From Elsinoe ampelina (taxonomy: Eukaryota): a stretch of 64,000 bases of DNA. Below the pieces are notes generated by a model that was given only the letters and a program-made list of their open reading frames with translations, searched no databases and was not told the DNA's origin. Position 1 is the first letter of the stretch. Each line of letters opens with the position of its first letter. Position numbers and translations under genes: made by a program. Positions 15,850 through 60,434 of the stretch are shown here, piece by piece. Location: positions 1,518,566 to 1,582,565 of the forward strand of contig ML992501.1 of the NCBI GenBank assembly GCA_010093995.1. The letters run 5' to 3'.

Positions 15850-16996
15850 TACGTGATCTGTCATGGTGATGGAAAATGTATTCGGGTTGGACTACGCAAA
15901 CAATGACAAGTGGATTACGTAGGCGAAGCGAAGCAGAAATCAGAAATCCAAGCAGAAGGACCATCGCCGACGTGCGGGCCGATATCGGCTCTGGGCCTCC
16001 TATGGGCTCCGTTTTTGATGGCGAACAAATTCGACTGACGATCGTGTCATCATACCCTAGGCTCTAAAGGAAACCCACTAGCTCCATTGTCCGACTACCA
16101 CCAGCCAGGTCTGTCATTGACGAACCTCCAGTAATCGCCGAACCAAAGGGGAATGTCTTCACCCAAAGCCCGGGCACAGAAGATGTCCAGTTCGCCTTCA
16201 TTGACCTCTCTTGCTTTGACCCTTTTCGCGTCGATCTCCGGGATGTCTTGTCCATGGTCCATGGCGTTCGGTATAGCTGCATCTGAACAACATCAGATCA
16301 GCCCATTTACCAGGAGGTGGCGACCCCAGCGCGATGTGTGTCAAATGCAGCGGGGTGAGATCTGCATCATCATCGATCCCCGAACCAAGTGTATCGGTTG
16401 CCAGTCCCCAGCAGATATGAGCTTCAGGAATCTGCCAGTGTAGGCACAATCGGTAATGTGAAGTTGCTGAACATCCCCAAAGCATGCTGCTGATCTTGAC
16501 CCATCGGGGATCGTCATGAAGTGCACTTCGTTGAGTCCAAGTAGTGCTGGAGCTTTCAGTATCGGCCTTTCATCTCCTGGAGAAGTAAAGAAACGGAGGC
16601 GACCTCCGATTATACTTAGTGACTCCAGCTTCTTCATCTGAACTTGTGCAAGGTAGCCCAAGCAATCATTGACTGTCTCCAGACAGGATGGTTCGGCGTT
16701 ACCGCAAATCATGATATGCTAGACTCGATGCCCGTTGCATTTCAGTGCTGGCACCAAGCTTTTCAGGGATCCGTTCTTCATTTGGATGATGAGGGAAGAA
16801 TACGGCCGGGAGATACCTGTGTTACGGCATTGCCTGCAAGTCAAGCATAGTGATCTGATATCCGACGTTTCGGACAGCTTGAGAAGTCAGCAGGAAGTAG
16901 AAATCGTCGGGCTTGACTCACAAAACTGAAGACAATATCCAGTACCTCAATTGGACACGAAAGTAGTCCAGTCAGCTCAGAAGCAGTCTGTGCCAT
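15850..16996 (-). pseudogene. Degenerate F-box/LRR-like gene (copy 1)
   Basis: MAQTASELTGLLSCPIEVLDIVFSF, intron 16921-16878, then LSETSDIRSLCLTCRQCRNRYLPAVF, the same architecture as its neighbours. A frameshift near 16795 and an in-frame TAG near 16720 follow; the remainder is broken into short ORFs. 3' end approximate. Confidence 0.65.
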
Positions 16997-17549
16997 CGTC
17001 TTCAAGCACACGTCGGGTGTAAAGATACGCTGCTGTTGAAGTCTGGTCGGTGAAGTTGTGATGTGAAAGCGACGGTCGAGGTTAGATTAGAGTGAAAGTT
17101 GATGATGTTCGAGGAGAGCAAAAGATAAGTACGTCAACCCAGCGCGATAGAAGTCGTTCAAGAGAGTGTGAAACGAGACTTTACAGTAATGTGAAATCTA
17201 ATAGAGAGCATCTCTGTGAGGCGCAGAGTGAGGTCGTTCAGCGAGAGTGGCGAATTGAGATGAATAGTATCACGAGAGGTATAGACTATATATCGCCACC
17301 ATTTGAGCTGCAAAGCTCAGTTAGTAGATGAATCGGACTCGAAGGCAGTGTTTGTGACGGTATGACCTCGAGCATGAATGTTTAGATAGAGTTTCTCATG
17401 CTCAAAGAAATGTCATCATCGGTAGGATGAACTTTGATGAACGGGACCTCGCAATTGACGACTCGAAATCAACACACGGGTAGACATGAAAACAACGCTG
17501 AATGAAAAAAGTCTGTAGGCCTCAAGACTACGGCTCAAGACACGTCAAT

Positions 17550-19501
17550 CTACCACCACTCACTCCCCCGAGGCACCCGACCATCACCCTGTATGTTCTC
17601 CTGCACTGGCATTACCTTTTCAAGCCTCCTCGTGGTCACAAAAGATACATCCTCATCGATGCACGCAGTCTCCTCTTTCGTCAGAAATCTCACGTCGTCA
17701 AAAGTCCTGTCGAGACAAGGCCCAGAGACAACGATTTCCGAGCAAAAGTAGGCGGCCTTGAAATTCAAGACCGAGTCATAAGCATCGGTACCTATGATGA
17801 GCTGTCTAAGTCGCCGTAGACCCACGGTGGAAGATCCAGGTCTCTGTGATTCCTGACGGTTGATGATTGCAGTCTCCAAGTTCTGCATATTGACGGCGAC
17901 TTGGTCTAACACTTGAGGATGCCTTATTGCTGAAGCCTTCCGGAGCATCGTATCTTGCCCATAGTTGAGCCAGTCAAATATCCGCTTGGCAATGCCTGCA
18001 ACTAGATCCAAATAAGGTCCGCTCTCAATGAGCTTGCCGTCGACGATCAAAATTGGATAAGTCGAAATGTTGAGCGTCCGCAGGGCAGGTAGTCTCCTGA
18101 CAGCACACTGTAGACAGGTCAGATGGGCTAGGCCACAGGGTTCGATAACTTGTACCTACCAGAAATGACAGAAATTCAATCTTGGCTCCTTCGAGAGCCC
18201 AGATACGGGGAAAGGCACAAGCCAGTGCCTTCAACTTTGGTGCGTTCAAGCAAAGCTGCAGGAGATCTTGATAATGCCATCGCTCTTCCCTTGGTTGTTG
18301 ATAACTTCCTCGTTTCGTCCACGAGTGAACTCGAAGATACTTCAAAGTTTCTGCTTGAAGCACAATTGCCTGAGCACTGAGGACGCGGGGACAATCTTCG
18401 AGCTCGACCGCGATTTCTTCGAGACCCCTGATATCCTCGAGCAGGTTTTCGATCGACTCGACTAGCCTCATGGTCCTGTCGTGCTTGCCACACACACGAA
18501 GACTGCGGAGAGATAGACCATCTCTGCGCCGTCCACATCGCTGACTCAGCGCATGGATCAAGTCCGCAGTGCTGGAACAGTCCGCAATCGACAATCTCGT
18601 CAGATAGGTAAGATCGATGATGTGGGCATAGGTGTATGACGCTTGTCCAAGGTGGATCCCAACAAGATCAAGCTCGCACAACTTGATGGGAGGCTGGCCA
18701 GATCCGAACGGCAGATGGAGGCGGAAGAGGGTCCTTGTCAGTAGACCAGGTCCATTCGAAGAGTCATTCCAGCGTATCTCCGGATCCAAGCCCCACTCAG
18801 CCTCCCGCTCTGGGAGCAGATGCAGGTGAAGAGTCCTTAATCTGCTACTATGACTTAGAATTTGATGGCAGATTTTGAGGTCGTGAGTGCGCTGTGGTGT
18901 CAAATACAACGCTTCGATGCTTCGTAGACTGCCACCGAGACTCAACAAACGTCCCGTAGCATCCACCTCCGAGCAATTGTGCCCGACAGTATTGACGGAC
19001 AGGCTTCTCAAGCAAGTGTGACGCGCCAGTATTTCTGCAACCCAGTCCACTTCCATGACCATGTCTGAAGTAGCATGGAACGATAGCAGACTGTTCCAAG
19101 GCAATAGCCGCATGAGCTGTGCCAGTATCTGCCGAGCATTGTCATGCATCTTCGCCGTGACCTCCCCATCGTCATCTATGTAAAAGTTGAAGTGAACATG
19201 ACGGACACATCTGAGCCCCTGATTGCCCTGCCCGAGTTTATTCAGAAGTCTATTCGACACATTCTCAGAGACTTCCACGACCATAGAGTTGTACAGCTCT
19301 GGTATGCTGAGTCGGTACGTTTGCTTGCAAGCGAGTGCCAGGCTTCTCAGGTCCGCCTTGGAAGCGAGCTATTCACATCAGCTTGTGGACGGACAACTCG
19401 GGCGGAGCACTTACGGATTGTACAATTACCAGTTTCAGATCCAGTGGTAGGTGCATGAAACTCGCACGTCCACGGGTATGGTCCCCGATCCTCGTTGCCA
19501 T
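17550..19501 (-). CDS. F-box/LRR-like protein (copy 2); exons 19501-19415, 19368-18160, 18107-17550
   Basis: FMHLPLDLKLVIVQS|LASKADLRSLALACKQTYRLSIPELY F-box-like motif; LxxLxL repeats; GT-AG introns with branch sites. Confidence 0.8.
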
Positions 19502-20113
19502 GATATGCCCAGATGTGTCCCTAACGGTCACCACGTTTTAAATGGCACTCTAGTGATATGGTAGTGTATGTAATCTTGGTATAGATCAGAGTGTCAGAGA
19601 AGGAGATTCTACTCAGCTCATGACTTTTCGTCTGTGTTCACGCACAAAGGGGTCACGTGATCAATTGCATTCTCAAAGAAAGCCGCGAATTTGAGCGAGA
19701 CGGATTCAGAAAACCCATCTGATGCGACAAAGGACTCTCCCATTGTGGAATATTGGCACTGTTTCCGATCTGTGTGTCTGCAAATGGCAACGTGGTCCGC
19801 TACGTCGCAAGAGGGAGACGACTCGGCCTCGTGAACTTGCATCTGCAGTACTTTCTGACTAGGCCAGCTCTCGCGCGGGCATATCGCGGGTCGAACACAT
19901 GTTCTACCGGTTTGCAAGAAGATGACATAGTCCTGTATTGATCTCCAAGGTGTGTTGTTGCTGATTCTTGTTGCTGATGAAATTGAGTGTCCGCACTCCC
20001 GAATCTGACACCGCCACATTAGTCATCCTGCACATGACGACCATGCATGGGCAGAAGCATCACACCTTTCTCAGCGGAGACTCATCCTTCAGATTCGACC
20101 AGAACACCCATCA

Positions 20114-21457
20114 ATGGCCTTGAACGAGGATCTCGATGTCTTTGGACACCAGCCGCCGCTGCACAAACTTTATACGCAAATCACCTTGTGCTATGCCGTT
20201 GCAGATGCTAGAGCAATTCAGGCAAACATTGAAGTCATCCGAGAAGGGCTAGGAGTCCTAGCAAAGAGCTTCCCATGGACTGCTGGACAAGTGGTACGGG
20301 ACGAGGAAGGAAACCTGAGGATCCAAAGCCTGGACAAAGCACCTCGGTTGACCATCAAAGACTACAGCAACGACAAAGAGATGCCCTCCCTAGAGCAAAT
20401 GCGGCAGGCAAGATTCCCATTTTCGATGCTCAATGAATCGATCGTAGCACCCTGCCCCACGCTGTCACACAGTATTGATGGACCAGTCCCGACTTTTCTG
20501 GTACAAGCCAACATCATCCGAGGCGGACTCCTCCTAACCTTCAATGCTGGCCACGATGTGATGGATCTAGTAGGACAGCACTTCATCATGCACCTCCTGT
20601 CCAAAGCCTGCAAAGGACAGCCATTCACACCCGAGGACCTAACAATCGGCAACCCCAACAGGCCCAGCATGATCCCCCTCCTCGACACCACCTATCACCC
20701 CGGCCCCGAGCTCGACCCCCAAAGACTCCCTCCCGCCCCCTCAGACCCCGCGCCCACCTCCCCCTTCCCTCCCTCCCCAGCAACATGGTCCTACTTCCTC
20801 TTCTCCCCCACCTCACTCACCACTCTCAAATCCCACACCACAACCACCCTCCCCCCTACCTCCCCCCTCATCTCCACAGACGACGCCCTCACCGCCCTGG
20901 TCTACACCCGCCTCACCGCCGCCCGCTCCCCCCGCCTCCCCGCCTCCACCCCCATCAACCTCGCCCGCGCAGTCGACGCAAGACGCTACCTCTCCCTCCC
21001 CGCCGCCTACCCGGGTCTGTGCCAAAACATGACCTACCACACCTTCACGGCCGAAAACCTCACTTCCCTCCCGCTGGGCGCCATCGCGCTCCATCTCCGC
21101 CGCGCCGTCGACCCCGCTGCTTCGGACGTGGGGTTCCGGACCCGCGCGCTGGCGACGGCGCTCGCGAGGGCGTCGGCCCGGGAGAGGAGTGGGTTCAGCT
21201 TCACGGCTGGTGTCGACGGGCCGAAAGATATGATGTTGTCGAGTTGGAGTAAAGTGGGTATGTACGAGGTTGATTTCGGGTGGGGGGAGCCGGAGGCGGT
21301 GCGGAGGCCGAGTTTTGATGGGGTCGAGGGGTTGGTGTATTTCATGCCGAAGAGGGGGGATGGGGAGGTCGTGGTCGGGGTGTGTTTGAGGGGGGAGGAT
21401 TTGGAGAGGTTGAGGAAGGATGAGGTTTGGGGGAGGTGGGCGGAATTTGTTGGGTGA
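20114..21457 (+). CDS. BAHD/transferase-family O-acyltransferase, trichothecene 3-O-acetyltransferase (Tri101/Ayt1)-like
   Basis: LDVFGHQPPLHKLYTQ N-terminus, catalytic HxxxD (HDVMD), STDDALTA, SSW...VDFGWG and VRRP motifs; intronless 447 aa. Confidence 0.9.
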   Translation: MALNEDLDVFGHQPPLHKLYTQITLCYAVADARAIQANIEVIREGLGVLAKSFPWTAGQVVRDEEGNLRIQSLDKAPRLTIKDYSNDKEMPSLEQMRQARFPFSMLNESIVAPCPTLSHSIDGPVPTFLVQANIIRGGLLLTFNAGHDVMDLVGQHFIMHLLSKACKGQPFTPEDLTIGNPNRPSMIPLLDTTYHPGPELDPQRLPPAPSDPAPTSPFPPSPATWSYFLFSPTSLTTLKSHTTTTLPPTSPLISTDDALTALVYTRLTAARSPRLPASTPINLARAVDARRYLSLPAAYPGLCQNMTYHTFTAENLTSLPLGAIALHLRRAVDPAASDVGFRTRALATALARASARERSGFSFTAGVDGPKDMMLSSWSKVGMYEVDFGWGEPEAVRRPSFDGVEGLVYFMPKRGDGEVVVGVCLRGEDLERLRKDEVWGRWAEFVG

Positions 21458-21593
21458 GTGGAGGTTGGGGAGGTTGGATGATCTATGTTGAGTGCTAGAA
21501 GGGAGCAGAAGTGAACGAAATCGGTCAGCCGAGACATGGCCGTGCTCGTTTAGCTGCCTCGTTTGTTGTGGCTATGTACCTCCTACTGCCATG

Positions 21594-23733
21594 CTATATG
21601 GCAAGGTCAGCAGGGTCAATTGGCCCTTGTTCTGTATTCATCTTCAAATAAGCCCGGTACCGCTCTTCCCCTTGCTCTTTACGGGCCTGCTTCACCGCAT
21701 CAACCCTGTTCATGGGTCTGAAATGTAGTGTCCTGTTCAGGACTTCGAAGTGGGTGCCCTCCCACACCCTGTGGCCCTTGGATACCGGAACGACTCTTGC
21801 CATCCTTCCATCAGCACCCTCTTCCCACTTTCGTTCGTAGACTGCCTGATCCTCATGATCGCCCCTGGCGTATAGCTGAGTGGTTCCAAATCCTATGTAC
21901 CGGAGGTTGTGTGCTCCCCGCATACCTCGGACGCCACATGCTTTGCTGGCCTCAGACATGGCATTTGTTTCATCATCGTCCTGTTCGTCTGCTCCTTCCT
22001 GTATGATTGCTCCTTCGGACCCACGGTCACCTTGAGGGACATTGAATGCCTCTGATTTGGAATCAACGCCGTCTGGTACAGCCGGCTTGTGTTGCACAAT
22101 ACCGATATGATACTCGCTGTCACTATCTCCGTAGTGCCATGTGATCTCGAAGATCTGTTCAGCACATGCTCGGACGCCGTGATAGTACTCTCGGTCAGAT
22201 ATGGACAAAGGATGGGAAGCGACGGGCCAATTGGTGATGTTGAGGGTAACAAGGCTCTCGAGATTGCAGATGCATTGCTACAATTCAGTCAGTCGTCAGT
22301 TTGGGACTAAGTAGCAGAGATTGGTACCATCCATTCCTTCCATCCTCGCGAGAACTTTTGTCCGACTACCATTTCTGGCATGCTGATCGCCAGATGCTTC
22401 AAATTCTGTGCCTTGTGGCAGAACTCGCGGAAGTCAGGGACTTGCCAGACCCTTTGCCATAAAACGGGGGTGCCTTCGCCAGCCGCGTTGGCTTCGTGCA
22501 AGGACAGCGTCTCCAGAGTATCGGCATTTTGAATCAGGCCATTCCAGTCTCTCATCTTGTCGTCTTCGTAATAGCCCAGAATACATATAGTGAGGTGGCG
22601 GAGTCTCAATCTGGAGCGGAGCAGTTCCTGCAGGATCATCTCAACGTCGTCACCTGATTCCCTATGGAGGTATTCGAGGGTTTCCCATCTTGGTGACTGC
22701 CCAACGACTGATATCATATGGTCGAGGAAATCGTCGTAATCTGTGCCTTCGAGGAGCCGGATGACTTGCAGTCGTGCGATATCGACAGCAACTAGCCATT
22801 CCACACCAGCATCATACAGGTCTAGTCTCTTGACTGTCAACGAATTGAGGCCCGGGAAGAGAGGTAGAAGGCCGAGTTGTCGTAAGCTATTGAGATCCAC
22901 ATCACCAGCTAGCACCTCGAGCATTTCCTTACCCGTATCGTAGATGTCTTCCAGCGAGAGTTCTCGCAGGCTCTCATACTGACAAAACCTAGGGATGATG
23001 GGGCAAACTTGTGAAGAGTCCTTGATGTAGTAGCGATAATTCTCAAGGTGGGGCAGCGTTGCATGTGAGCGGTCCAGCATGCCCGGCGGAGGACTCCATG
23101 AGTGACCTTCGACTAGTCCACCCAGTCTTCGCAGGTTTCTCTGATGCGTCTGAAAGTGCAAAAGTAAGCCGCAAAGGTTTTGATATTCTCCCTCTTCCCA
23201 ATCGAATGTGTCCAGAGTATCCTCCTGGAGTTTCCCAACCACTAGATCGAGCAGCTTCGCTTCGTCTTGCTGGTTGAAAGGCCCCAGAATGGTCATGATT
23301 CTGACATGCCTCAGTAGCTCGCTACGGCTGACGGATCGCCAACAGTCTGTTCTCGAGACATCGAGAATCAAGTGATGATACAGTCTTGGTATCGCTAGAT
23401 CATTAAATATCTTGCAAACTTGTGATGCATTATCGAGATGACCCGGCTGTTTGACCTAGTCAAAGTCAGCTATACTCGGTGTGGGTGCGATGCTGAGCTG
23501 CTCCGAGCGCATAAAAGACTGCGAGCTTGGAGCAGTCGAGCTTGATTCAACGCCTTGGACGCCATACAGATTCCTTGATGGGTAGGAAGATCTGCTGCCT
23601 GGCGCCCACAGGATACTGTTAGAAGAGCATCGCTGAACCAGTGGTCCATGAATGTTGCTACCGTGGGGAGACTTACATGATCTAGAATGAGACCGATGAT
23701 CTCGGTTGGCAATGGTTCTAGTATTGAAGGCAT
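21594..23733 (-). CDS. F-box/LRR-like protein (copy 3); exons 23733-23677, 23455-22328, 22277-21594
   Basis: MPSILEPLPTEIIGLILDH|VKQPGHLDNASQVCKIFNDLAIPRLY; LxxLxL repeats; second intron 22327-22278. First intron is unusually long (221 nt) and has a competing acceptor. Confidence 0.7.
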
Positions 23734-24080
23734 GCTGTTATTTGTGAAGGGAGACGGCGTGAGCGAGGAGGGACAATCTCGGCGCAGCTTGCGGCAGATT
23801 GCACGCCCAGAGAGTGGCGCACACCCCTCTACTGCGAGATTAGATATGAGGATGAAAGCTGCCAAGTACATTGTATTACCACTATTAGTAGAAACGGAAA
23901 AGGAGTCTATCGAAGGTCTGTCGGTAAATTCGCATCGACAGGCTTCAAAATGACATACATTCACAAGGAGAAACTGATGAACAAAGAGATAAGTATCTTC
24001 AATGCTAATGATGATGCTAACGCTACAGTAATGATCGACTCGCTATTCTATGTATAATACAAAAACTCCCCTATTCCACT

Positions 24081-26051
24081 CTAGCACTTCCCAAAGTTGA
24101 CATCAACATCCAGCTCAAACGTCCACGACTGCTTGGAGCTGTAGCTATCCTTGCCCACCCATCCACCGGTATAGGTCTCAAAGGACGAATCAACAGCGAC
24201 ATCGTACAGATTGCAGTACGTTCCGTACGGCACACCGTTCTTGTGGTAGTAGATGGCGTTGACATACTTGCATGGTGTCCAGGTCTTGAGGCCAGCTTGG
24301 ATGGCGGCGGCTTTGTTGGCGGCGTTCTGAGCGATTGCGTAGTCACCGCAGATTTGTGCGTTGAAGGGGCCGGGGAAAACCTTGCTGCCCATCCATCGCT
24401 TGGGGTTGTTGACGGCTTTGCCTCCGCAGTTCTTGCCTGGCTTCCATTTGGGAACGGAGCTGGTTGGAGTGGAGGCGGCGGTGGTCTTGGCTGTGGTCTT
24501 CACGGAGGTGGTCAACGATGATTTGACGGTGGTGGTAAGCTTGCCAGTGGTCTGTGCTGTGCTAGTCTGAATAGCAGTGGTTGTGGGAGCGGTGGTCGAT
24601 GGAGCAGCAGTAGTGGAGCTTGGGGTAGAGGAAGGTGCAGTCGAGGTAACCTCACAGGTAGGTGTAGTGTTGTTGGTCTTGTCGTAGCCATTGGAACCGG
24701 TGATGACAACCTCAAAGTCCTTGCGCCATTGGCCTTTGTTAGTGGCGAGACTGGCGTCTAGAGCAGATCCCCAAAGAGTGCACTTGTAGTTGGTGACGGC
24801 ATCGGGAAGAGGGCACCAGTATCCCCAGACAGTGGGAGCAGTGGAATCGTTTTTGGTGGGGTTGAGTGCTGGGTCACGCTCAATGTAGATGTTGAAGGAT
24901 GTGCAAAGATTAGTTTCTTCACAGAAGGCGGCGCACTTATTGACATCGTATGCATCGAGAGTGTGAAGACCAAGATACGAGTTGGCAGATACTGAACCTT
25001 GAAGGTTACTGAAGATGCGGTTGTAAGTACTGCTGCCACTGTTGACGGTCGAGGGAGCGGAGAGTGCGGCTTGCTTGAAGTCGGGGTTGTTCATGAAAGC
25101 ATCGACAGTGAGATTGCCTGGACCGTGGCCGTCAGGCTGGGGAGCGCAAGGATCTTCAGGGTTGATGAAGCCACAGTAGGTGCCAGCCTCGGGTTGAGTA
25201 GCGCATGCGCCGTTCGCGGATGTTGTGGAAGTTGCATATGTGGTGGTGGAAGGAGAAGGTACGGCTCCGCCGCAGCTAATATCATAGAAAGCGTAAGGAC
25301 TTTCGTCGACAGGATTGATGTTGCCAAGTACAGGAGCCTTGTAGCATAGACAAGTGTTGGCGCCGAAAGCGAAGCTCAAAGCCCCGTCATGCTGCAAGCA
25401 AAGGCCTTTGCAGGTCTCGAGATTGGCAAATTGACCAGAGCCATCGGACCAGAAAGCTGCAGGGTTCTGCAAGTCGTAGCCATGAATGCCACAAGATCCA
25501 CTCGAAGCAGCGGATGTAGTTGCTGGAGCTGCCGTGGTTGTTGAAGGGGCAGCAGTTGTCGGGACAGGTGTTGTGTATGCGGAAGTTGTTGGGACCGCCT
25601 TGGAAGTAGTTGTGCTCGTTGTGGTGGTCGAACTGGTCGCTCTTGTAGTGGTGGTCGTGGTGGTCGTAGTTGGAGCAGTAGTGGGCTTCGCGGAAGTCGT
25701 AGTGGTCTTCGGAGCAGCTGCAGGAGTTGTACAGGGAGTAGTTGAAGCCGGAGCCGTTTGACACTTGCGGAAAAGCAAGCATTCCCAAGTGTTGATGACA
25801 GCGCCGTAGTTGGTGCTTCCACCGAGGTTGAAGAAAGTACGCTTCGTGAGACCTGAACCAGCAGGAGCAACAGGATCGGTGACAGTCACATTGTTGGTAA
25901 TGGTGACATCTTCTTCGACCACAAAAGTACCTGGACCAGTAGCGGCGACCGGCGCTGCATTGATCTGATCCATGTCGAGCATCTGAGGAGCGGGAGAGCC
26001 AGCGACCAGGCCAGCCAGGGCCGCGGCAACGATGATCTTCTGATGAACCAT
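24081..26051 (-). CDS. Secreted Thr/Ser-rich, Cys-rich protein with PAN/Apple-like modules (paralogue A)
   Basis: Signal peptide, LTKR Kex2-like site, T-rich linkers, core YDVNKCAAFC...CTSFNIYIERDP...CTLWG...NKGQWRKDFEVVITGSNGY. Confidence 0.85.
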   Translation of the reverse strand: MVHQKIIVAAALAGLVAGSPAPQMLDMDQINAAPVAATGPGTFVVEEDVTITNNVTVTDPVAPAGSGLTKRTFFNLGGSTNYGAVINTWECLLFRKCQTAPASTTPCTTPAAAPKTTTTSAKPTTAPTTTTTTTTTRATSSTTTTSTTTSKAVPTTSAYTTPVPTTAAPSTTTAAPATTSAASSGSCGIHGYDLQNPAAFWSDGSGQFANLETCKGLCLQHDGALSFAFGANTCLCYKAPVLGNINPVDESPYAFYDISCGGAVPSPSTTTYATSTTSANGACATQPEAGTYCGFINPEDPCAPQPDGHGPGNLTVDAFMNNPDFKQAALSAPSTVNSGSSTYNRIFSNLQGSVSANSYLGLHTLDAYDVNKCAAFCEETNLCTSFNIYIERDPALNPTKNDSTAPTVWGYWCPLPDAVTNYKCTLWGSALDASLATNKGQWRKDFEVVITGSNGYDKTNNTTPTCEVTSTAPSSTPSSTTAAPSTTAPTTTAIQTSTAQTTGKLTTTVKSSLTTSVKTTAKTTAASTPTSSVPKWKPGKNCGGKAVNNPKRWMGSKVFPGPFNAQICGDYAIAQNAANKAAAIQAGLKTWTPCKYVNAIYYHKNGVPYGTYCNLYDVAVDSSFETYTGGWVGKDSYSSKQSWTFELDVDVNFGKC

Positions 26052-27096
26052 GGTGAATGAGTGTAGTTTTACTGTAGTGATTAAGATATTATTAAGTTAG
26101 ATAGTATAGATTAGTGAATGAATTAGAAACGAAAAGGGACCAGCCCAGAAGATTGTACAGTAAAGAAAAGATGAGGTTGTGGTTGCTGGTCGTCAGTAAG
26201 AGGTCCAACCTCAAGGTCTTATACCTGCAGCCCAAGCATGCACATGACGGTGACGGCATGGCAGCGTCCTTCAGAGTCGAACAATTGGCCGTTGCCACCG
26301 CTATAACGGCTCGTAATCGAAGAAGGAGTCCACGCTGCTACATGCCATGGTTTGGCGGTGTCTCGGCAAAGCTTGTCCGTCAAGACAGAATGACGGCTGT
26401 CATTCTCGAAGGAGACCAGGTAAATCTCGAAATGGATGGCCCGAGATTGATAGTTGGGTTCTCTGATTGCGGACCGGTCGATACTGTCGTCGAACGTCCG
26501 CAGCGTGCCGAGAGCCGGCAGCCAGAGACACAGCAGGTAGCATATGCGAACCTTATCAACAGGTCATGCCTCTATCGCAGCTCGCCCTGACGAGACAATC
26601 GAAGCCAAGGTCCCTGTGTATCAGGAAATATTACTTTGGAAAAAGAGTGAGGTCGATGCGTTGGAGCAGCAAGAGGAAGAAGAGGAATAAAAGGCACTGA
26701 CGAGAGGTACTACGGTGAACGGAATTCAAAAGAATGCAAAGCATTTTTCCCCGAAATTTCACCATTCCGAACATCACAGATCTAATGCCTTCCATGCATT
26801 CCTCCTTATACATGGTCGTCGTTCATGATAGCGGCATGATGGCCCCAAGATCTATCTATTCTGCTCAGGCTTTGGACCCCTTGAGATTTATTCTCTCTGC
26901 CACAGGAGTCCACAGGATTTCTGCCCGCTTCGTCGCGGTCAAAACAGTATCCTGAACCCTCCGGCCTCTCGGAACGACCCGACCTACTCCAACTGTGCTA
27001 TTCCTCATTGAGCCTTCTTTGCTCAAAACTCTCGAATGTAGTATATGCTGTCATAGATGATGCCTCGGGGCTGGTGTAAACTCCTCGTCTTTGTCC

Positions 27097-28822
27097 TCAG
27101 TCGCCCATCACATTCGCCGGCCTTTTCGCCCAATGGGGATTTTCGTACTCGAGTAGCGTGCAGTCAGGATAGTCATACCTCCTGTCGATGTGCGAGATGG
27201 GTCTAACGTGCTGTAAGGTGTAGCCCATCGGCCCATGTACGACAGCGTCTTCGATTGCGAAAATGCAGACACCTCCTGAGTGTCGGTATGGTCGCTGTTC
27301 TCCACAACCAAAGGCGACTAGTTCTATGCTTGGAACGAACTCGTATCCCTCATCTGACATCTGGCCGTTCACCATGGTCGCGGTGAAGGATCGTAGAAGT
27401 TCTTGATATATAGTCGTTGAGAGGTTCAACACCGCGTTCACCGTTGGCCAGGGACTAATGCGCAATGCATAGATGGAGGAGTTCTGCAGCAGATACTGCT
27501 ATGCTGAAGTGAGCTGTTTGGGCTTTGTACAGGATTCAATGGGCTACTTACAACTCGGCTTGACCAGGAAGGTTCCACGGTGGATAGCAGATCAGCCGGG
27601 GGAAAAGCGCAGGAAAGCTGTCCCAGAGCAGGGCATGCGTCGATAACGGCGGCAAGGTCGTCCTTACTCCAATACCATTCGACGTTGTTGGTCCTCGCAT
27701 CTCCAAAGAAATGAACAGAGAGGAGCTCCAGCTTGGATCCCGAGGCACAGATCTTGCCAGCATTGATGCTTCTGGAAGTCCCTCTCAATGACAGCGAGAG
27801 AACCTTGAGCTTGGTACAAAGAGTAAGAAGCGCCTCCAGTGCTTCAATAACTCTATTGTCGTTGAGGTCGTTGTGAGTGACGGTCAGTTGCTCGATGGTC
27901 ACTGGAGCGGGCCTGCACATCCTTCTGAGAAGTCCTGCAGTACCAGAACAGTCCACAAGGGTCAAGGTCTGCAGACGAGAAAGGTCAAGCATGGACATCC
28001 ATTCAGAGGCGACATTTCTGAGATCAACGGAGCACAATCTGAGCTCGTGGAGGTCGATGAGATTGCTTGGTATACCGCTGGGAAGTCGGATACTGAACAG
28101 ACGCCTGGCGAACACGGAAGACAGGCTTGTGGAAGATGTCTGTGAATCGAGGCCAAGAAAGCCGAACTTGTTTGCCGCGTCTCGAACCTCGATGTCCAAG
28201 GTCCTGATTGAGCTTGCCGCTTGGACGAGATACTGTGAGAGTTGAAAAGATGTCTCCGAGTCGATGATGAGTTCCAGCTTTTGACGGCCGTCAAGAGTCT
28301 TCCCGTAGGCAGGGGCGACCTCTTCAACTCCGTAATGAGACGAGACAGCAGTCGTTAGAGGAATCGTCGGCATGACCTGCAGATTCCCGAGCCGCCTTTG
28401 TGTTGAGTACAGTTTTCTGATAGCGTTCACAGAAGGAGGAGCGACTTCTGACCACGTGAAACGCCTGAGAACGTCTTCCGGCAGATACTCGAGAATGATT
28501 CGCAGCGTACACTCGACCAGTAAAGCTGGCGCTTCATCGATCGTGCTGATCTCCAACTCTTGAATGTAACGAAGAGCAACATTGCGCGGGTTGAAGGTAT
28601 AGACAAGATCACAGTCTTCTCGACTCCCGATGAGGAGATGCATGTCGGCGTAAAGCAGCTTGACGCCTGGATCATACCAGTCCTTGTTGGTGAGACAAAG
28701 ATTCTTGAAATCTGATGGTCGTGAAAGCTGTCGCATCAATCAGTAATGAGTCGGTGCGCATTTGGTGCTATACATGCGTGCTCGGCTACCATATGCCTGA
28801 CCTCCACCGGCAGTTGCACCAT
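27097..28822 (-). CDS. F-box/LRR-like protein (copy 4); exons 28822-28778, 28727-27552, 27498-27097
   Basis: MVQLPVEVRHMVAEH|LSRPSDFKNLCLTNKDWYDPGVKLLY; first intron appears to be GC-AG; LxxLxL repeats; second intron at the family-conserved site. Confidence 0.8.
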
Positions 28823-29342
28823 GATGGCGTGATATACGATTGTCTCGACTTCGTATGGTGACGATTTGTTCGATAGTACGAAGGTGGTGAAAGAAGAGAA
28901 GTGGGAAAGATGGATGTCAGGAAATGATCAACAAGAGAGAAGTGGTCAGCCACGTTTCACGAAACATGCCACTTCGTCACGTGATTCTCAAGGATGATGT
29001 CAGCGGAATGAAAACGTCGAACATAGGTAGGCCTGGCTGCAGTCTGGCATTAGAAGGAGTTCTCGACATCACCTGAGTCCAAGCCTCCGTTTCAGCAACA
29101 TTATGAACCTTGCGACCAGTGGCCCGCACTCGACCCATGCATGCTCTCGAGACCTGCGTGGACGGATCAGCATTTGGTGGCGTACGCTTGCAGACAAGAG
29201 TCCTGTCGAAGTTCAATTCGGGCAGAGCACTTTCTCTGTCGATCTGTCCCTTCAATCGATCTTTGGCTATCTCTGCGGCTCCTTCTCAATGAGACTTCAT
29301 GCTCATCTTCACCAGTGTCGCTAGTGCCACTCCTTCCAGCCA

Positions 29343-31159
29343 TTACTGAATGTCCTGTGGCGGACCTTTACGGAAGGCAACCCATTTGTCCAGGATATCG
29401 CTCTCGGGCATCTCATGTACCCGCTCCGAGCTACTGACCAGCTCTGCCTGCACGTATCCCTGGACCCCTGAGACAGCACCTCGTTTATAGATCTGATGCG
29501 CCTCCACGGCGGCGAGAGGGTCTTGATTGGTGATACCGAATGCCACGAGTCGCAGACTTGAACTGTTCGGGATACGATAGTGATTTGTTGGGTCACTACC
29601 AACGTTGAGGATCTGCTTTGCCAGGCTCTTGATAGCGCAGCAGTAGATGCTGGATTCGACAGCTTCGACGGATTCGGGTGCTTCTGGCCAGGTACTGATC
29701 CTCAGGGTATGGAGCTTTGGCAAGGCTTTGATGGCAACCTGATGAACATAAGCTATGGTGGACTTTCTTGCGGATGGCAATACTTACTATGCATCGCATC
29801 CAGTCGTCGGAAGGATCATCGATGATAGATGTACTTGGGAGAGCGCAAGAGAGCTGCTCTAATTCGACACAAGCTCGAGTTATCATCCCGAGATCCTGAT
29901 GTGTCCAGTGAAGTTCATAGTTATCATCGTTGGGAGCAACGTGGACGTTGAGAAGCCTGAGAGAACTCCTATGCGATCTGATACAGCGCTCTTCTACCAT
30001 GCGGCTCATCCCTGCCATGCTGAGCACTAGGTTCACAAGCCCACGGGTGGATCTGAGATATCGCTCGATCGCGGTAAGAGTGCGGTCCCTATCGTGACCA
30101 CTGATCTGGATCTCGAGTTCGGTCAGAGAACTGGTCCAGTAGCTGCGAAACATGGGCAAGAAAGATCTCAGACCGGAGCATGCGCGAAGTCGCAGCGTGT
30201 GCAACGCTCTGAATGGGACTAGACTGACCCAGTCCGAATGCTGAGTCAAATCAATGTTGAACAGTGTCAGACTGCGCAATTTGTTCAATGACGAAAGACC
30301 AGTGACCCACGGCCTGTTCTGACATAGCTTGCGGATGAAGTTGCCCGAATGATTCCCCTGTTGCACGGCTGTTGTGCTTGGTGATCCAGACACAGACATG
30401 AAGCTCAGATTCTTCACATTCCGACAGATTCGTATACTCAATTCAACTGGCTTGCATTCCGACAAGAGGATGCGGCTCAATTCGAAGGACTCTCTTGATT
30501 GTATGAACAGCTCAAGCTTTACGCAGTGGTTGAGTGAGCCCGTCGTCTGTGTTGGACGAATTGGTACCATATAACCTGACCCGTAGATTAGATCACCTCC
30601 ATCAAGCTCTCGTGGCCCCACACCACTACCATTGGCCACCAACGTAGGGGTGGGCGGGAGTCGATCGAGTAGACCTGCTGCGTGGAACGTCTGTACTGAG
30701 CTCATCTTCTTCTGGCGGCATAGTAACACACGTAGAGTATCCTGTGACAGGCGGGCCCAGCTCCTCCAGTGGAATCTTGACAATGAGTCTTCTGGGAGCA
30801 GCTTGAGAAGGACAGAGATTGTGGCGTCTGCTTGGGATTGGAAGCCACCAACTGCCAGGTCCAGATCAACCTCTTTGACATAGCGCAAACCATTGTTGCG
30901 AGAATTGAGCGTCATTGCCATCAGTTGGACGTCGTTCTGGGAGCCGATGTCGAAGCGGAGGCAACGATATAGTTTTCGGATCGCGGCGTCGTACCAAGTA
31001 TGGGAGACGTAGGACAGGTTGGCAAGATCTGAGGGACAATTCAACTGTAACATTCAGCGGCCATCAGCATTTCCTGAGCTGCAAAGTTCTTACTGCTTCT
31101 GCGATCATACATTTCACCTCAATTGGGAGCCTGGCTCCAGCGCTCTGGTTGGTGCCCAT
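29343..31159 (-). CDS. F-box/LRR-like protein (copy 5); exons 31159-31094, 31044-29788, 29738-29343
   Basis: ARLPIEVKCMIAEA|LNCPSDLANLSYVSHTWYDAAIRKLY; LxxLxL repeats; GTAAGA/GTAAGT donors. Confidence 0.82.
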
Positions 31160-33812: not shown

Positions 33813-36800
33813 CTTGAACGGTAAGGTATAATTAGGTATTAGGTAACAAAGCAGGAATAGAGCCTGATGAGAGAAGTCTGTGCTGTCGACTCCAGTGTGA
33901 CTATATATCACCATAGCATATGTGACATGCACTTACATGGTACCTCGAATTCGAAGATCGTTCAATAGCAACGGCCGAACATCAGATCGTTGACGCCACC
34001 GGCTGACTCACCTTGTCAGTGGCCGGAGACTTGTGTCCACGCGGCATAGCCCATCTGTCCAGATCTATATTCACATGTGCAGTCCGGAAGGGCCTCGAAA
34101 AAGCATGGAACATCAGTATAGGGCCGTAGTACACGGCAAATCAAGCCCGGCGGGTAGATAGAAACGGGGTCAGGCAAACGGTGCCCGGGCCTTCCCCAGC
34201 CAGATGCAAATGCAGTATCGATTTGAGATCAACGGTCGACGGGATGGCTGTATATACATGTTCGGTCGAGGTAACGGTCAGAGTCTGGGCTTGTGGTTGT
34301 CCGTGTCTGGCTGCTTATTGGTGATTTTCTGCTCGTAAGGACCTAGAGACTTTCCGTCTGAGACTTGAGCAGTTCGGATCGATCGGACAAATCCTGCTTC
34401 TGTGAGAAAGACTTCTGTCAAATCCGTATGACCTTCTTCTCAACATGCTGAAGGAGATCAGAGATTAGGCAAGGCTGCCCGCGAGCATGAAGCATTGTTG
34501 ATGCCGCTTGCCACCACGTCAGATACTTCGCCTGGGCCGCTCTTGCGGTCAAGCAGACCACGCACGTCCTGCTTATCGGAATGTCCAGAAGTGAAAGGAG
34601 AGCTGCAGTGTGTCAATGGGAGGTGTACGGCGTTTGGGAGGAGCTGACCCCCAGCCATCAGATCATGCCGTTGACATACAGATGTTTGGTAGAAAAGAAC
34701 AGTTGGTCAAGGCAAAAGGAACATGGGGAAGTCGTTGACGGGAGACGTCCCGTTGCGAAACGGTCGCTGCCACAAACCCAAAAACAGCTTCACAACTCAA
34801 CATTTCACAAATTCGCAGCGCGGCATGAGTACAGGGTTTTCGGGTTTAAACTGGCCACTTTTTTTTTTTTTTTTTTTTTAAAATTCTATTTAGCCGACTA
34901 GCTGCTGTAAGGCGCCATGCAGCGTGTGTACTATATACTATCTCTACTCTAGTAATTAGGGCCTTTTACTGCCTCTGGATTATACAATCTAGTAGTTAGT
35001 AATAGAGAGCTAGGAGGACCTTCTATCTACCTTCTTTGCTAGGCCCTAATCTAGCCCTTAACAGTGTAAAGAAACTATCTAGTATAACCTGTAAATGTGC
35101 GCCTTATACTTTATCTTATACCTTAAATTGTTATATAAAAAGTGCTATATTAACTGCTCTAAACTAATCTAGGAGGTTTATTTACCTTATGAATTAAATA
35201 GCCCTATAGAAGTAAGCCCTTATGCCTACTAACTCTTACTAGGCTAGAGGCTATATAGTAGTACTCTAGACATCTACGTAGATGTCTCTATAGATATAGT
35301 ACTTAGTAAGTATATAGTGTACTAACTAAGAAGCTCTACTATATTTATAGGCTTTAGTATCTACTCTTTTAATAGAAAAAAGATAGTTATTTAGTCTAAT
35401 ATACCTAGTGTATAGTTAGATACTAACTAAAGAGAGAGGTTTTAGTAGGCTAGTATATAGAGAGAGACTTTACTTACTATTAATAGTGCTAAGTACTTAA
35501 TATAATACTCTCCCTATATCGCTAACGTTCTAAAGGTATTACTATTTGTCCTTAATAGCTTAGTTAAATGTTCTTATTACTACAGTAATAAGAGTATATA
35601 GCTAGTAAGTCTTTAGGCTATTAGAGTTAAGAGCTACTTCTTTAGCTAGCTTATTAATAGCTTCGTTGCCCTTAACGCTCTTATAGCCTAGTATCTAGCG
35701 GATTTTAACCTCTATACCGTACTATACGAGGTGCTAGTAAAGCCTAATAATTCTCCTAATTAGGTACTATACTATCTTTTACCTAGGTCTCTTAACTAAC
35801 TATATTATAGCCTAGTTATTAGTAAAGACAGTAATCTTATATACCTCTTACACTAGAGGCCTATTAACCTCGACTATTAGTTCTAGTACGAGGTAGATGT
35901 CTTATAGCTCTACTACGTAGATGTTACTACTCTAGTTCGTGCCTATATAGTGTTTACTAAGCTATTCCCTCGAGGGGATCTAAGCTATAGCTCCTACTTT
36001 GCCTTATATCTTAGAGCTATCTAAGTACGTAATAATATAGCTAGAGTTACCTCTACTAGTCCGTACTACTTTATTATGTTCCTAGATAGCGTCCTTAATT
36101 ATATTAGTAATATAGGTACCTAGTAGTACCTACTATAGGTCGATAGCCTCTATAACGTAGTCTTCTAGAGAGGAAAGTCTAGGGGGTATAATTTTAGCAG
36201 CGTAGATCTCTAGCTTATATAGTAGTACTTTAAGGTATAATCTCGTGTCTCTAGTATCTCTAATAGCTTAGAGTTCTACGTGCTAGAGTAACCCCTTTAG
36301 GTAGAGTATAGTAGATAGTAGTAGGCGCTATAGGTAGAGGTCTATAGATAAGACCCCTAGCTCCGCCTATAGCGTAGCTACTACTATAGTGCGTAACGCC
36401 TCTAATATAAGCACTAGAGCCTTATACTATAGCTAGGATAGCGTACGTACTATAGTAGTTTTAGCTCCCCTATAGCTAAATCCGCTAAAGGGAATAACTT
36501 AGGTACTATAGCTATAGATTATCTTAGGGAGTACTATAGCGTAGTATAGCTACCTTATTTACCTAAGAGAGATCCCCTAGGTTAAGGCTACTATACTAGT
36601 TAGTACTCTAATCTACTTAGTTACTCTACTTCTAACGTGTTCTAGGTATACTCTACTATTAAGCTAGGGGTCTAGAATAACGCCGAGGTGCCTATAAGCC
36701 TAGCTAGGCCTAATAGTAATAGCGGCGCTACCTTTAGTCTCGATATTAAGTAGCCTATTCGCTTTTTTCTACTCTAGTACGCGCTATCCCCTATAGAAGA

Positions 36801-39800
36801 AGTAAATTATCTTATACTTTATAGGGGCAAAGACTAACGCGTAGGTACGTGCCTACTTATTAGCTTCGCTAATTACCCTCTAGATAGAGGCAATAGTATC
36901 TACTATAGTAGCTCTAGTAGTAAGGAGACTTACGTTATTAATGTACTCTATATTGTCTATCTTACCTTATTCGATCTCTAGTAGGTCTATATTATAGAAG
37001 TAGTAAAGGATTAGGAATAGAAGGGAGCCTTATAGAATGCTAGTGTTAATCTCGTACTACTTCTAAAGTCCTTTCTACATTTTTAACTATAACTATTAGC
37101 TCTATAGCTAGCTTACTAGCTAGCTAACAATTAGAGAGTTAATTCTACATTTCTAGAGGTTATAGGGTAGTCGCTAGTAGAAGACATTATCGAATGCCTC
37201 TAACATGTTAAGCATTAGAAGTATAGTAATCTTACTCTATTACTAGGCCGCGTAGATCTATTTAGTAATAAGATAGAGAGTATACTTTATGCCTCTACCT
37301 CTCCTACTACTATAGTAGCTAAACGGTAGAAAAGAGAACCTCTCTATAGCTACTAATATTCTTCTAGCTACTATAACGTCTATTAGCTTACTAATAGTAT
37401 TAAGAAGGGCTATTAAGTAATAGCTCTTTACCTAGGAGTAGTCTAATTTACCCGGCTTATAGAGTATAACTATTATAGATTAGTAGAAGTGCTATAGGTT
37501 ACACCCTAGTTATAGCCTTATAGGTAGGCGTTAAAGATCCTTATAAGTAGGCTAGCTACTAAGTCTATTACTAGTTTATATACTCGGTTTAGTATCTAAT
37601 CTAGTCCTAGTGTATTATCTACCTTTATACCTTATATTACCTCTCTTACCTTACGCTTAACTATATTAGGGCACTTAGTAGAGTCGGGATAGTAGAACTC
37701 CTCGATGTTAGTAAGGTCTACCTCTAGTAGTGCTAGCGTAAAGACCTACTAGAGGATAGTAGCCTTAGTTACTATATCTAACTAGGGGTTACTCTATCTA
37801 TTATAGATCGCTAGGGTAAAGTCTAGTTAAATAGTACTATAGTTATTAACCTATTTACTAAGTTTCTAGAGGTAGTTAGGTTCTATAACTTAGAATACCC
37901 TATCCCTATAGTAGTTATAGAGTACTCTAGTAACAATAGACTTCTTATAGCGTATAGCGAGCTAGTATTAGATATAGTCTTCTAGGTTCTATGTCCTCTA
38001 CTAGCGCCTCTATACCGTCTTTACCTCCTATACCGCCTCTATATATTTCTAGTTCTAGCTCTATCTAGACTTACTATAGATTCTACTCTTTAGTATAGTC
38101 TACTCTACTACCTCCTCTACCGCCTATACGATCTAGTAGACTACTTCGTTAACATTGGCTATGTTATTAATTAGCCTATCTAAATCGAGGCCTATAAGCA
38201 TTTTCTAGAAGGCTAGGACGTTAGCCTTCTTCTAGTACTGCCTATTCTCTACTACTCGGAGTATAGAGTTAAAGTCGAGTACTATAATAATAGGTAGATA
38301 GTTCGATTATAGGTTATACTTCCTAGAGATGTTATATTTAATAAAGCGTTCTATAATTCGTTCTAATACAAATACTAAGTCTAGCGTTAAACTATACTAT
38401 AGTTATAAAGCTACCTCTACTAGTCTAGTAATAGTACCTAGCCTAAGGTATAGGTAGGGGTAGTATCGTTCGAATATATCCTCTACTAGGTAGTTAGCGG
38501 CCCTAGTAGTTCGTTCGTCTCGGTCTATACCTCTAGTCTATAGGTAGTAGTAGAGGTTAAAGTCCCTAAGAATAAGATATTCTTAGTTAGGCCTACCTAC
38601 TAATTCTACCTCGAGTTTAACAAGTAGGCTATAGGCTTTAAGGAAGCCTATATTGTTCCCCCTTATACTAGTGCTAGTATAGGGGGAGTTATACATATTA
38701 TAGATATATAGCTAGGTAGGGGTGCCGTTTATATAGTAGATAACTTAAAGGATAAAGTATTCTTTAGCTATATAAACTAGTAAGAGGTATTATTTCGAAA
38801 TCTACTTATTAATAAAGAAGTAGACTTTAGAGCTCTCTTATAAGTAAACTAGCTAAAAGTCTTACTTAAGTAGATAGTAAGTTATAGTAGCGTATCTATT
38901 ATAGTAGAGGTCCTAGATTATAATAATATTAAAACTCGTAATATTCGGCATACTAAATAGTAGAGCTATTACTTCGTCCTTAGACCCCCTAATGTTATAC
39001 TATATAATTTTAAGTCCTTTTAGTATGCTATTTATTAATTAACTTACTAGCCTTCTTCTACGTAGGCTTTATCTACTAGAGCGACTTATATAGCTTCGAC
39101 TCGTCTATAGATAAGAATAGATTAGAGCTAAGGTTATTGTTCTCTATATCCTATATATTAATATTAAGTATATTGTCTACGTCGGCCTATAGTTAAACTA
39201 TTTTAGTAGCAGCAATAGAGGTAATATCTAGGTTAGTAAAGACATTAAAGGTAGCCTTTTTTGCTCTTAAGTTGCTACTAATTTCCTTTAGTAGGTCTAA
39301 GTACGTCCTCTTCTACTCTCTAATCTCTAATTTAGTATAGGTTTTACTCTTACTCTTTTCCTTTAAGCTAGGGGAGTAGGATTAGTTATCTCTAGCCTTA
39401 GAGCGGCCCTTTAAAGCGCGCTAGAACTTCTTAAATTATACTATCTAGAAGTCTTCTTCTTAGGACGTCTTAGTCGCTAGGTTAGAGATACTCTCCTATA
39501 AGAGAGTAAGTTTAGAGGTTAGAATAGAGTTACTCTATCCTAACCTTAATAGTATTTTAGACACTAGCGAGGTAAGATCTAACGCTAGCTCTAGCTAGAA
39601 GAGCTTTATTATAGCTAGAGCCTTTATCTATTCTATCTTTATCTTTTCTTCCTATTTAAACTTATATATAGTTACCTATATATAATATTTACTATAGTAG
39701 CGGCAGTATAAGGGCTTACTATCGTTAGCTTCTATAGTATAGGCGTTAATATTATATTTAGTGCTAGCGCACTTACTATATGTTTCGGGATTAATATATT

Positions 39801-40752
39801 AGGTTCTAATATAGCTATATTAGTAGCACTTTAGACATTGTTTAATCTAGTAGCTATATAGGTACCTTTCGGTCCTATACTTACTACTATTCTAAGTAAT
39901 CTACTAAGCTATAATTACCCTGTTTACGTCCTTAGATTTAGTAAATTCTACTACTAAGGTAGAAGCTTTCTTCTCTTTACTAAACTTAGTAAGCTAGTAA
40001 ATATACTTAATAACTATATTACCTATAATAAGCAAGTTTTCGGCGCAGAGCTAGGCTACTATCCCTACTTAATCGGCTAGATTAACTGTCCGAACGGGGA
40101 CCTAGTAGAGGATAGCACTAAAGGTAGATATAATAACTATAGCTAAAGGCCTTAGGCTTTTAGCCTACTCGCTATACTAGGGTTACTTAAGAAGCTTAGC
40201 TTTCCTAGCGGTAGTAGTAAAGAACTAGAGGTCTCTAGACTTAAGTATATATACTAACTATAGCTTAGTACCTTATACTATAGGCTCTATCTTTGCTAGT
40301 TACTTATTAGCTATTTCTAGAAGTTCCTTTTAGAGGTTAGCTATTCTATTCCCTAGTCGCTAGGTATACGCTAATTGCGCGTTATTTAGCTTAATAATAA
40401 GCTACCTAGCTAATAGGTAAAAGGTGTCCCTAGCTAGCTAAGATCCTAATAGTAGCGAGCTAAGGGATAGTAGTAATTCTTAAGGGCTAGAAGCTACTAT
40501 TTCGGCCTACGTCTTAGTAGTCTATTTAAATAGGGCAGCGGTGAATTATAATGTTTTAATGTCCTTATAGATAGATTCTAGCTTTATTTCGATATTCTTT
40601 ATTAATAGTTAAATTAAGACCTTATAGAGGTAGCTAATAATAGAAGATAATAGCTTCTAAAAGACTTTAAATAAAATAGCTTACCCTTTTATTTTCCTAA
40701 TAGAAATAGTATAGTAGTTAATAGAATTAATGTCCTATTTAATTCTAGAAGC

Positions 40753-40955
40753 TGTTAAGAATATAGCTCTCTCTAGATAATTAGGCTATAAAGTTATATA
40801 ACCTTAAGTTATATAATGCTAAGGCCTAGAGATTTATAGCTGTTCTTTCTTCTAGTAGATAGACTCCTTTTAATCAATTAACTCGTCTATTACCTAACTA
40901 GTGTACGATTAGTTCTATATAATATTCTACTCCTAAACGTGCCTTCTACTTAACA
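40753..40955 (+). repeat. Copia 5' LTR
   Basis: TG...CA ends; near-identical direct repeat at 51853-52055. Confidence 0.92.
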
Positions 40956-43900: not shown

Positions 43901-44422
43901 TACCTATAGGGAGAATCTTCTTACACATTAAGATCCTAAGAGTTAACCCTATTAACCTTATAGATTTCTAACATAGAAAAGAGCTAATAGTTTAATCTTT
44001 ACTAACTAACTATATAAGTTAATTACTTAAAAGATTAAGAGATAATAACTCTAATAATAAAGGCCCTAAAGCTAAGCACTATAGAGCTTTTATTACTAAG
44101 TATATTAATTAGTAAGATAAGGTTAATAAGATTACTATAATGGCCTCTATTAAGTAATATGTCCTAATCCTAAGGGACTACTATAAGGCTATTACTAATC
44201 TAGTATAGGGAAGTAAATAGTAGAAAGTAATTAATATAGAGCTTAATACTCTATACTTAAATAATATATAGAAAGAGGTTATTCCTCTAAAGGGATCTAA
44301 CTTAGTAACATCTAAATAGGTCTTTAATATTAAGTATAACATAGATAGCTCTATTAAAAAGTTTAAGGCTAGACTAGTTACTAGAGGCTTCTTATAGAAG
44401 TATAGTATTAACTATAAAGACA

Positions 44423-44657
44423 NNNNNNNNNNNNNNNNNNNNNNNNNNNNNNNNNNNNNNNNNNNNNNNNNNNNNNNNNNNNNNNNNNNNNNNNNNNNNN
44501 NNNNNNNNNNNNNNNNNNNNNNNNNNNNNNNNNNNNNNNNNNNNNNNNNNNNNNNNNNNNNNNNNNNNNNNNNNNNNNNNNNNNNNNNNNNNNNNNNNNN
44601 NNNNNNNNNNNNNNNNNNNNNNNNNNNNNNNNNNNNNNNNNNNNNNNNNNNNNNNNN
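44423..44657. other. Assembly gap (235 N) within the Copia RT
   Basis: Run of N. Confidence 0.99.
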
Positions 44658-45007
44658 GTTATAAGGGATAGACAATAAGGCACCTTAAGACTTAATTAAA
44701 CCTACTATATAGATAATATACTATAGAGGCTTAATATAACCTCTAATAAGGTTACTCTAATAAAGTAGCTAATAGACAATAAGCTTCCTTAAAGAGCTTA
44801 GGAAGATAATATAAAGTATAGTAGAACTAAGTACTTATATACTATTAGAAGCTAGATATACCTTAGTACCCTAATAAGGCTAGATACTACCTTTGCCTTA
44901 GGAAGGCTAAGTTAGTTTATAGTAGATCTAATAGATAGTTATACTATTAAAATAAAGAGAATATTAAGATATATTAGATTAACTAAAGATCTTAGTATTG
45001 TATTTAG

Positions 45008-51852: not shown

Positions 51853-52055
51853 TATTAAGAATATAGCTCTCTCTAGATAATTAGGCTATAAAGTTATATA
51901 ACCTTAAGTTATATAATGCTAAGGCCTAGAGATTTATAGCTGTTCTTTCTTCTAGTAGATAGACTTCTTTTAATTAATTAACTCGTCTATTACCTAACTA
52001 GTGTACGATTAGTTCTATATAATATTCTACTCCTAAATATGTCTTCTACTTAATA
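51853..52055 (+). repeat. Copia 3' LTR
   Basis: Direct repeat of 40753-40955, preceded by a purine-rich PPT-like stretch and followed by the TSD GAAGC. Confidence 0.92.
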
Positions 52056-60402: not shown

Positions 60403-60434
60403 ATAGATAGGGAGAGTAAGGTTAAACTCTTCCT

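Follow-up and report, generated by a model that had tools for sequence, protein, structure and literature searches.

The question raised by a 64,000-nt stretch of DNA from the grapevine pathogen Elsinoe ampelina (assembly GCA_010093995.1, contig ML992501.1, positions 1,518,566-1,582,565 of the forward strand; hereafter the window, whose positions serve as coordinates throughout) is what a row of five related F-box/leucine-rich repeat (LRR) genes does for the fungus. F-box proteins are the substrate adaptors of the Skp1-cullin-F-box (SCF) ubiquitin ligase. The first-pass annotation had seen in these genes an old birth-and-death array of variable substrate receptors and a candidate ubiquitin-based surveillance or defence system. 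We favor a different answer, with a probability of roughly 60%, namely that the four intact genes encode intracellular F-box/LRR substrate adaptors of SCF which were locally duplicated, three of them (A-C) having probably been retargeted. All five copies lie on the minus strand at 16.1-31.2 kb, where they had been claimed to be, and models built from splice signals gave four intact genes of 540-622 amino acids (aa) and one broken copy:

29343..31159, minus strand: gene A, F-box/LRR, 572 aa; exons 31159-31094, 31044-29788 and 29738-29343
27097..28822, minus strand: gene B, F-box/LRR, 540 aa; exons 28822-28778, 28727-27552 and 27498-27097
21594..23733, minus strand: gene C, F-box/LRR, 622 aa; exons 23733-23677, 23455-22328 and 22277-21594
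17550..19501, minus strand: gene D, F-box/LRR, 617 aa; exons 19501-19415, 19368-18160 and 18107-17550
16095..16996, minus strand: copy E, degenerate; exon 16996-16922, intron 16921-16878, stop 16721-16719 (codon 78)

Every intron in these models is in phase 0. One interrupts the F-box in 5/5 copies, and a second lies a few codons upstream of an L..L.I..(W/Y)P motif in A-D; as had been described, both are shared, falling at identical column boundaries across A-D in a 41-row family alignment. A and D, as modelled, match proteins annotated in E. ampelina at 100% identity. The B model was made from sequence and alignment; its first intron is GC-AG (GC donor), and its second acceptor was picked as the frame-preserving one. 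C has an acidic insert in exon 3. The other motifs noticed earlier, L..L.I..(W/Y)P, LxxL(A/S)(C/I) and L..(V/I).(F/I)G, recur in 4/4 intact copies if I/L swaps are allowed, while the F-box motif was only approximate, since its start reads LP.E in A-C, LPLD in D and CPIE in E. Elsewhere the copies are as unlike each other as reported, with pairwise protein identities of 21-31% among A-D (BLASTP E values of 6e-58 to 2e-6 in a five-sequence comparison). At this protein identity, and with a longest shared DNA match of 29 bases between paralogues, neither recent near-identical duplicates nor gene conversion was detected. Matches to the family profile spanned the F-box in B (355 bits), C (201 bits) and E. 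The last scored 34.6 bits at residues 9-68 with only one weak patch (2 bits) beyond, and according to the profile lacks most of the LRR solenoid; after the stop at codon 78 it has two more stops before its last. A hydrophobicity check found a strongly hydrophobic 19-residue stretch in none of the copies, which fits intracellular proteins.

Splicing was checked in public contigs, which came from four runs in three studies; the runs were taken as RNA by guess, and their joints match spliced forms. Both introns of A, C and D were confirmed, all six being joined at the predicted bases with GT-AG ends, and each C intron was joined in 3/4 runs. No joint was listed for B and E in contigs of the four runs, in which cover is thin, so that this is not evidence of silence. 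Three of the four runs differed by 1 base, outside the array genes, across the 19.5 kb that they share (cover again thin). The first intron of C (23456-23676) is 221 nt long, approximately four times the length of the other introns, and has within it a CAG with a short open frame after it; the joints seen were all of the long form.

The proposed F-box/LRR fold was supported by AlphaFold models of A (predicted local distance difference test (pLDDT) 86.5, predicted template modelling score (pTM) 0.89) and D (pLDDT 82.6, pTM 0.85, with a low-confidence tail), together with structural matches. Both models begin with three F-box helices, continue with 14 parallel strands that have helices in between, and carry a beta-hairpin at the C terminus; their strand columns coincide. 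The pLDDT exceeds 90 in the F-box of A and across most of that of D. The LRR solenoid is thus recognized by model in A and D and by alignment only in B and C. Furthermore, A passes the Pfam F-box-like model PF12937 (25.5 bits against a cut-off of 24.3), as do the Elsinoe fawcettii partners of A and C. Among the 46 family proteins scanned, in which the array was represented by full-length A and D, 29 matched PF12937 at E<=0.01 and 13 were over the cut-off; no Pfam LRR model reached its cut-off in the array and family proteins scanned. One Skp1 gene was found in the E. ampelina genome.

A wide structural search with A returned FBXL2 first (Z 15.9, root-mean-square deviation (rmsd) 5.7, 371 aligned), followed by FBXL17 (Z 15.3) and Rad7 (Z 15.2). 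Like the FBXL-type proteins FBXL2, FBXL17 and Skp2 of human and Dia2 of yeast, the array proteins consist of an N-terminal F-box and then a beta/alpha LRR solenoid, and FBXL-type structures matched A with Z scores of 15.9 (6o60_C), 15.3 (6w66_B) and 12.9 (1fqv_A), although identity is just 11-14% and orthology is not implied. They differ from that type in having 14 irregular repeats with inserts, the C-terminal beta-hairpin, and no Pfam LRR over the cut-off. The plant hormone co-receptors COI1, TIR1 and MAX2/D3 lead both the Foldseek and the sequence-profile rows (Foldseek with A: E 1e-8 to 1e-7, rmsd 10-13), but the TM scores are just 0.35-0.39, the TIR1 sequence match is significant only in the F-box, and no evidence was seen of a hormone or inositol-phosphate site. 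H390, Q419, S421 and T452 of A, in repeats 11-13, are kept in approximately 80% of 41 rows; this patch may pack on the protein's own C-terminal hairpin or may hold a shared ligand.

The actual family of these genes consists of ascomycete 'F-box domain-containing' proteins of 500-650 aa with the same two introns. A search with D gave 154 representatives at E<=0.001 (50% clustering). Of 30 that were looked up, the named ones were all ascomycetes, including Peltaster, Aureobasidium, Saxophila, Phyllosticta, Candelaria, Pycnora, Xylographa and others, and in the Atlas ascomycete clusters scored 0.98 and a single basidiomycete set scored 0.97. In forty metagenomic loci from the conserved subfamily (11/40 span at least 12 kb, and several are near-copies, so that counts are not independent), the gene is single in 40/40 and a second family copy was found in 0/40, whereas in Elsinoe it has multiplied and A-C lack a conserved insert. 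At the site of intron 1, 28 of 34 testable loci have an AG at the same phase-0 position; four of these 28 read through an unbroken F-box, so 24 were counted with the intron and 10 without. At the site of intron 2, a GT at the same position coincides with a break in the match in 9/34 testable loci. Given that relatives elsewhere carry both introns, the gene structure is ancestral to the family. The identical structure noted in the first-pass annotation therefore stands, but as an inheritance and not as a trait of the array, and we rejected the shared introns as proof of local duplication.

Six single-protein genome searches, in which the query was an array member in three cases and an outside relative in the other three (best candidates scored), placed family matches at the array locus only, except for one match off the array (E 0.012) with two stops. 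In E. fawcettii, five members have neighbouring locus numbers (4g003070, 3100, 3120, 3130 and 3140), and trees pair A with 3140 (47% identity), B with 3130 (30%), C with 3100 (26%) and D with 3070 (35%), with order kept. The remaining 4g003120 is an extra copy whose closest array matches are 27-34%; a remnant of it was looked for between the array genes and none was found. In Elsinoe batatas there is a partner of D (86% identity) and a B-like protein (51%), with locus numbers 443 apart and contigs of equal length. The latter is short and looks like a read-through of intron 2, and a word-based search with A found no E. batatas protein. Some birth and death of old paralogues, as had been proposed, is thus apparent from the extra E. 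fawcettii copy and the broken E of E. ampelina, and this gain and loss of copies between lineages has been slow. A tree with all 11 Elsinoe rows together was not rejected and fitted slightly better (approximately unbiased test, p-AU 0.595); the 31-row tree comprised named or full-length rows. Together with matches confined to the locus and the lack of a second copy in the metagenomic loci, this tree argues for a local origin, and a single origin of the Elsinoe copies would be allowed rather than shown by these sequences. The conserved insert, which lies before strand 7 and was found by a strict pattern in 31/150 family matches (many of them fragments), is present in D alone among A-D, suggesting that D is probably the conservative copy.

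LRR receptors that diversify vary most at the exposed residues of their xxLxLxx strands, as judged for plant nucleotide-binding LRR (NLR) proteins. Such hypervariability was not found in six cross-species pairs or between paralogues. In the six pairs, 129/274 exposed concave positions were identical (47%) against 415/1065 other surface-like positions (39%, p 0.016), a comparison of protein identity and not of dN/dS, in which pairs overlap, divergence is deep and loops are usually less conserved than strands. Between paralogues, identity was 21% at exposed concave positions and 14% at the other surface, and in eight outside relatives 29% and 28%, respectively. The B pair gave 21/48 against 75/184, and the pair of D and its E. 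batatas partner alone leaned the opposite way (37/50 against 174/208, p 0.15). Divergence is spread over the whole LRR, with core strand residues kept. It is also rapid, as the end branches of most Elsinoe copies measure 0.4-1.7 against 0.34-0.71 for the relatives in Peltaster, Aureobasidium, Saxophila and Phyllosticta, which belong to other orders. Between B and the E. batatas protein, which could be paralogues, the F-box is 33/40 identical (82%) and the rest 174/369 (47%; p 2e-5); the A pair shows 26/40 against 242/504 (p 0.048). For D and its E. batatas partner the two parts are alike (35/40, 88%, and 451/525, 86%), and for C and its E. fawcettii partner the F-box is 9/40 identical, no better than the rest. 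The contrary picture named in the first-pass annotation, that of conserved one-to-one orthologues under uniform purifying selection, is therefore half true: the one-to-one pairs with E. fawcettii hold, but divergence is too fast and uneven for uniform purifying selection.

The preferred reading, in which the proteins are SCF adaptors, is based on the predicted fold, the PF12937 matches, the spliced A, C and D, and the one Skp1 gene. Drawing on established SCF biology, from which we infer Skp1 binding, targets and any division of labour, the N-terminal F-box would dock on Skp1 and the concave sheet of the LRR solenoid would bind a target protein, which would be ubiquitinated and then degraded. 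A mostly single-copy ascomycete gene would have been duplicated locally before the split of E. ampelina and E. fawcettii, and copies would have been slowly gained and lost since. D probably retains the ancestral role, while A, B and C would have lost the conserved insert, diverged fast and probably moved to other targets within the fungus. Several points weigh against this account. D scores 17.4 bits with PF12937, below the cut-off of 24.3. In the 131-row FastTree (22/149 rows removed by length), D stands apart from A-C with weak support, and the pair of C and 3100 unites two long branches. The E. fawcettii genes are putative orthologues by trees and annotation numbers, not by DNA synteny, and the contrast between F-box and rest in B and the E. 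batatas protein might equally fit diversifying selection. In Aspergillus nidulans, according to the accessible part of PMC9744329, 43/74 F-box proteins were found with SkpA and just eight were needed for development.

Among the alternatives, a surveillance or defence repertoire, whose LRRs would bind foreign proteins (of mycoviruses, transposons or other strains) for the proteasome in an arms race, seems unlikely to us. The long Elsinoe end branches speak for it, as do the LRRs of A and B, which diverged faster than their F-boxes, and the extra E. fawcettii copy, the broken E and the failure of A to find an E. batatas protein; such a pattern is described for nematode F-box genes, at least in the portions available of 10.1101/2020.07.09.194670 and PMC12951971. 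Nevertheless, conservation is higher at the exposed concave positions than on the other surface, both across species and between paralogues, there are five copies only, and none is young by DNA matches of at most 29 bases. The single differing base in the 19.5 kb shared by three runs, thin as the cover is, lies outside the genes. The genome has many F-box clusters and many copies of the neighbouring transposon: 22/78 genome F-box matches fall in eight clusters other than the array, and a 7-kb element of the nearby repeat island recurs in at least 16 further copies (88-91% identity; of 157 candidates, 17 were scored), so the genomic context adds little to a defence role. Of three marks of an immune-type array, gain and loss of copies between lineages is seen here, whereas hypervariable exposed residues and recent duplicates or gene conversion are not. 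The role proposed in the first-pass annotation thus found no direct support, the concave face not being hypervariable and the E. fawcettii pairs being one-to-one.

It is quite improbable, in our judgement, that some copies have left SCF, with a degenerate F-box and an LRR serving as binding scaffold or target-shielding decoy. The score of D under the Pfam cut-off and the poorly kept F-box of C (9/40 identical to its partner) are in line with it, as are the 31/74 A. nidulans F-box proteins not found with SkpA in the accessible text of PMC9744329, but the F-box is the best-kept part of A and B, its pLDDT is high in A and most of D, and the E. fawcettii partners of A and C are over the cut-off. 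We give little credence to a variant in which D is ancestral and the LRRs of A, B and C were remodelled as non-self sensors, with the H/Q/S/T patch of repeats 11-13 as a common anchor and with ligands that would be proteins of mycoviruses or transposons, or a molecule of the host plant serving as a TIR1/COI1-like glue. That A-C are redundant, weakly constrained duplicates in drift, and E a more advanced case, is likewise very doubtful, for although divergence over the whole LRR, the loss of the insert in A-C and the broken E would agree with it, and drift models have been proposed for plant F-box genes (PMC7829749, in the part available), long-term selection is needed to keep frames of 540-622 codons open at 21-31% identity, core strand residues are kept, cross-species partners exist, and A and C are spliced.

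The SCF-adaptor reading makes the array an additional case of a known kind of gene family, F-box/LRR. Expanded and fast-diverging F-box sets have been described in mushroom-forming fungi (PMC10282164) and nematodes (10.1101/2020.07.09.194670, PMC12951971), and F-box/LRR genes have been catalogued in Macrophomina (PMC7991009), as far as the accessible portions of these sources extend. Judged by such partial texts, the nematode, plant and mushroom sets are likewise clustered, lineage-specific and fast-evolving SCF adaptors. The Elsinoe array differs from these sets: it consists of five old copies with partners in other species, young duplicates are absent, and the concave face is not hypervariable. 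A literature search found no paper on the array or the family, as judged from listings and with most subscription journals outside its coverage. The locus offers a clean example of a fungal F-box/LRR family missed by the Pfam LRR models. It holds one conserved and three remodelled copies, and the family as a whole is open to deletion or tagging at one place, which makes it a handy test of the function of fast-evolving fungal F-box proteins. The importance would be far greater if it were true that the copies recognise foreign proteins or plant molecules; were they sensors, an ascomycete would possess an LRR-based recognition system linked to ubiquitin.

Other features of the window bear on the setting of the array:

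24081..26051, minus strand: gene for a threonine-rich protein with PAN-like domains, unrelated, inside the array
20012..21457, plus strand: acyltransferase gene, unrelated, inside the array (PF22664 E 1.6e-52, PF02458 E 8.9e-21)
35000..62200, no strand: AT-rich repeat island mutated by repeat-induced point mutation (RIP), GC 0.31, composite RIP index +1.88
52278-59313: 7-kb element in the repeat island, with 479-nt terminal direct repeats

The copies do lie side by side, but the PAN-domain and acyltransferase genes interrupt them, so the array is not one contiguous block. The transposable-element island that had been placed next to it exists nearby as the RIP-mutated repeat island but does not adjoin it, the start of A being approximately 3.8 kb off with another gene between. 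The earlier statement that the copies show no RIP is correct, as the composite index is negative in all five genes (-0.68 to -1.04; RAD54, -0.80). Three direct-repeat pairs in the island (40755-40956/51855-52056, 45002-45203/51061-51262 and 52278-52756/58836-59313), two of them nested, are consistent with stacked long terminal repeat (LTR) elements.

Other F-box clusters of the genome were considered as members of the same family and rejected, since 1/5 scanned gave weak matches, mainly in the F-box. A different F-box family, with an 'NPYL' F-box start in long open frames, forms clusters at C4:1382505-1388361, C4:1303288-1305167, C16:382786-385675 and C16:416382-424072, with five genes within 6 kb on C4.

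The threonine-rich PAN-like genes at 24081-26051 and 31941-33812 are two of a family of approximately 18 members and are 45-50% alike in the shared domain. A duplicated unit of PAN gene plus F-box gene was rejected, as a gene on a different contig matches the inner PAN gene at 68%. Of the members outside the window, 3/16 lie within 10 kb of an F-box match, compared with 4.6% of the genome (p 0.03, post hoc), a proximity that may reflect only shared fast-evolving regions. At 31878-31980 on the plus strand, the contig of one run skips 101 nt with GT-AG ends (depth 2.1); this joint crosses the end of the minus-strand PAN gene and is possibly a spliced antisense transcript. The acyltransferase at 20012-21457 is Trichothecene 3-O-acetyltransferase-like, and its 3' end converges on that of gene C. 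Lastly, 12524-15571 on the minus strand encodes a 1015-aa single-frame protein with no Pfam match, for which the Atlas gave an ascomycete cluster (0.95) and a weak likeness to a von Willebrand factor A (vWA) domain (0.83).

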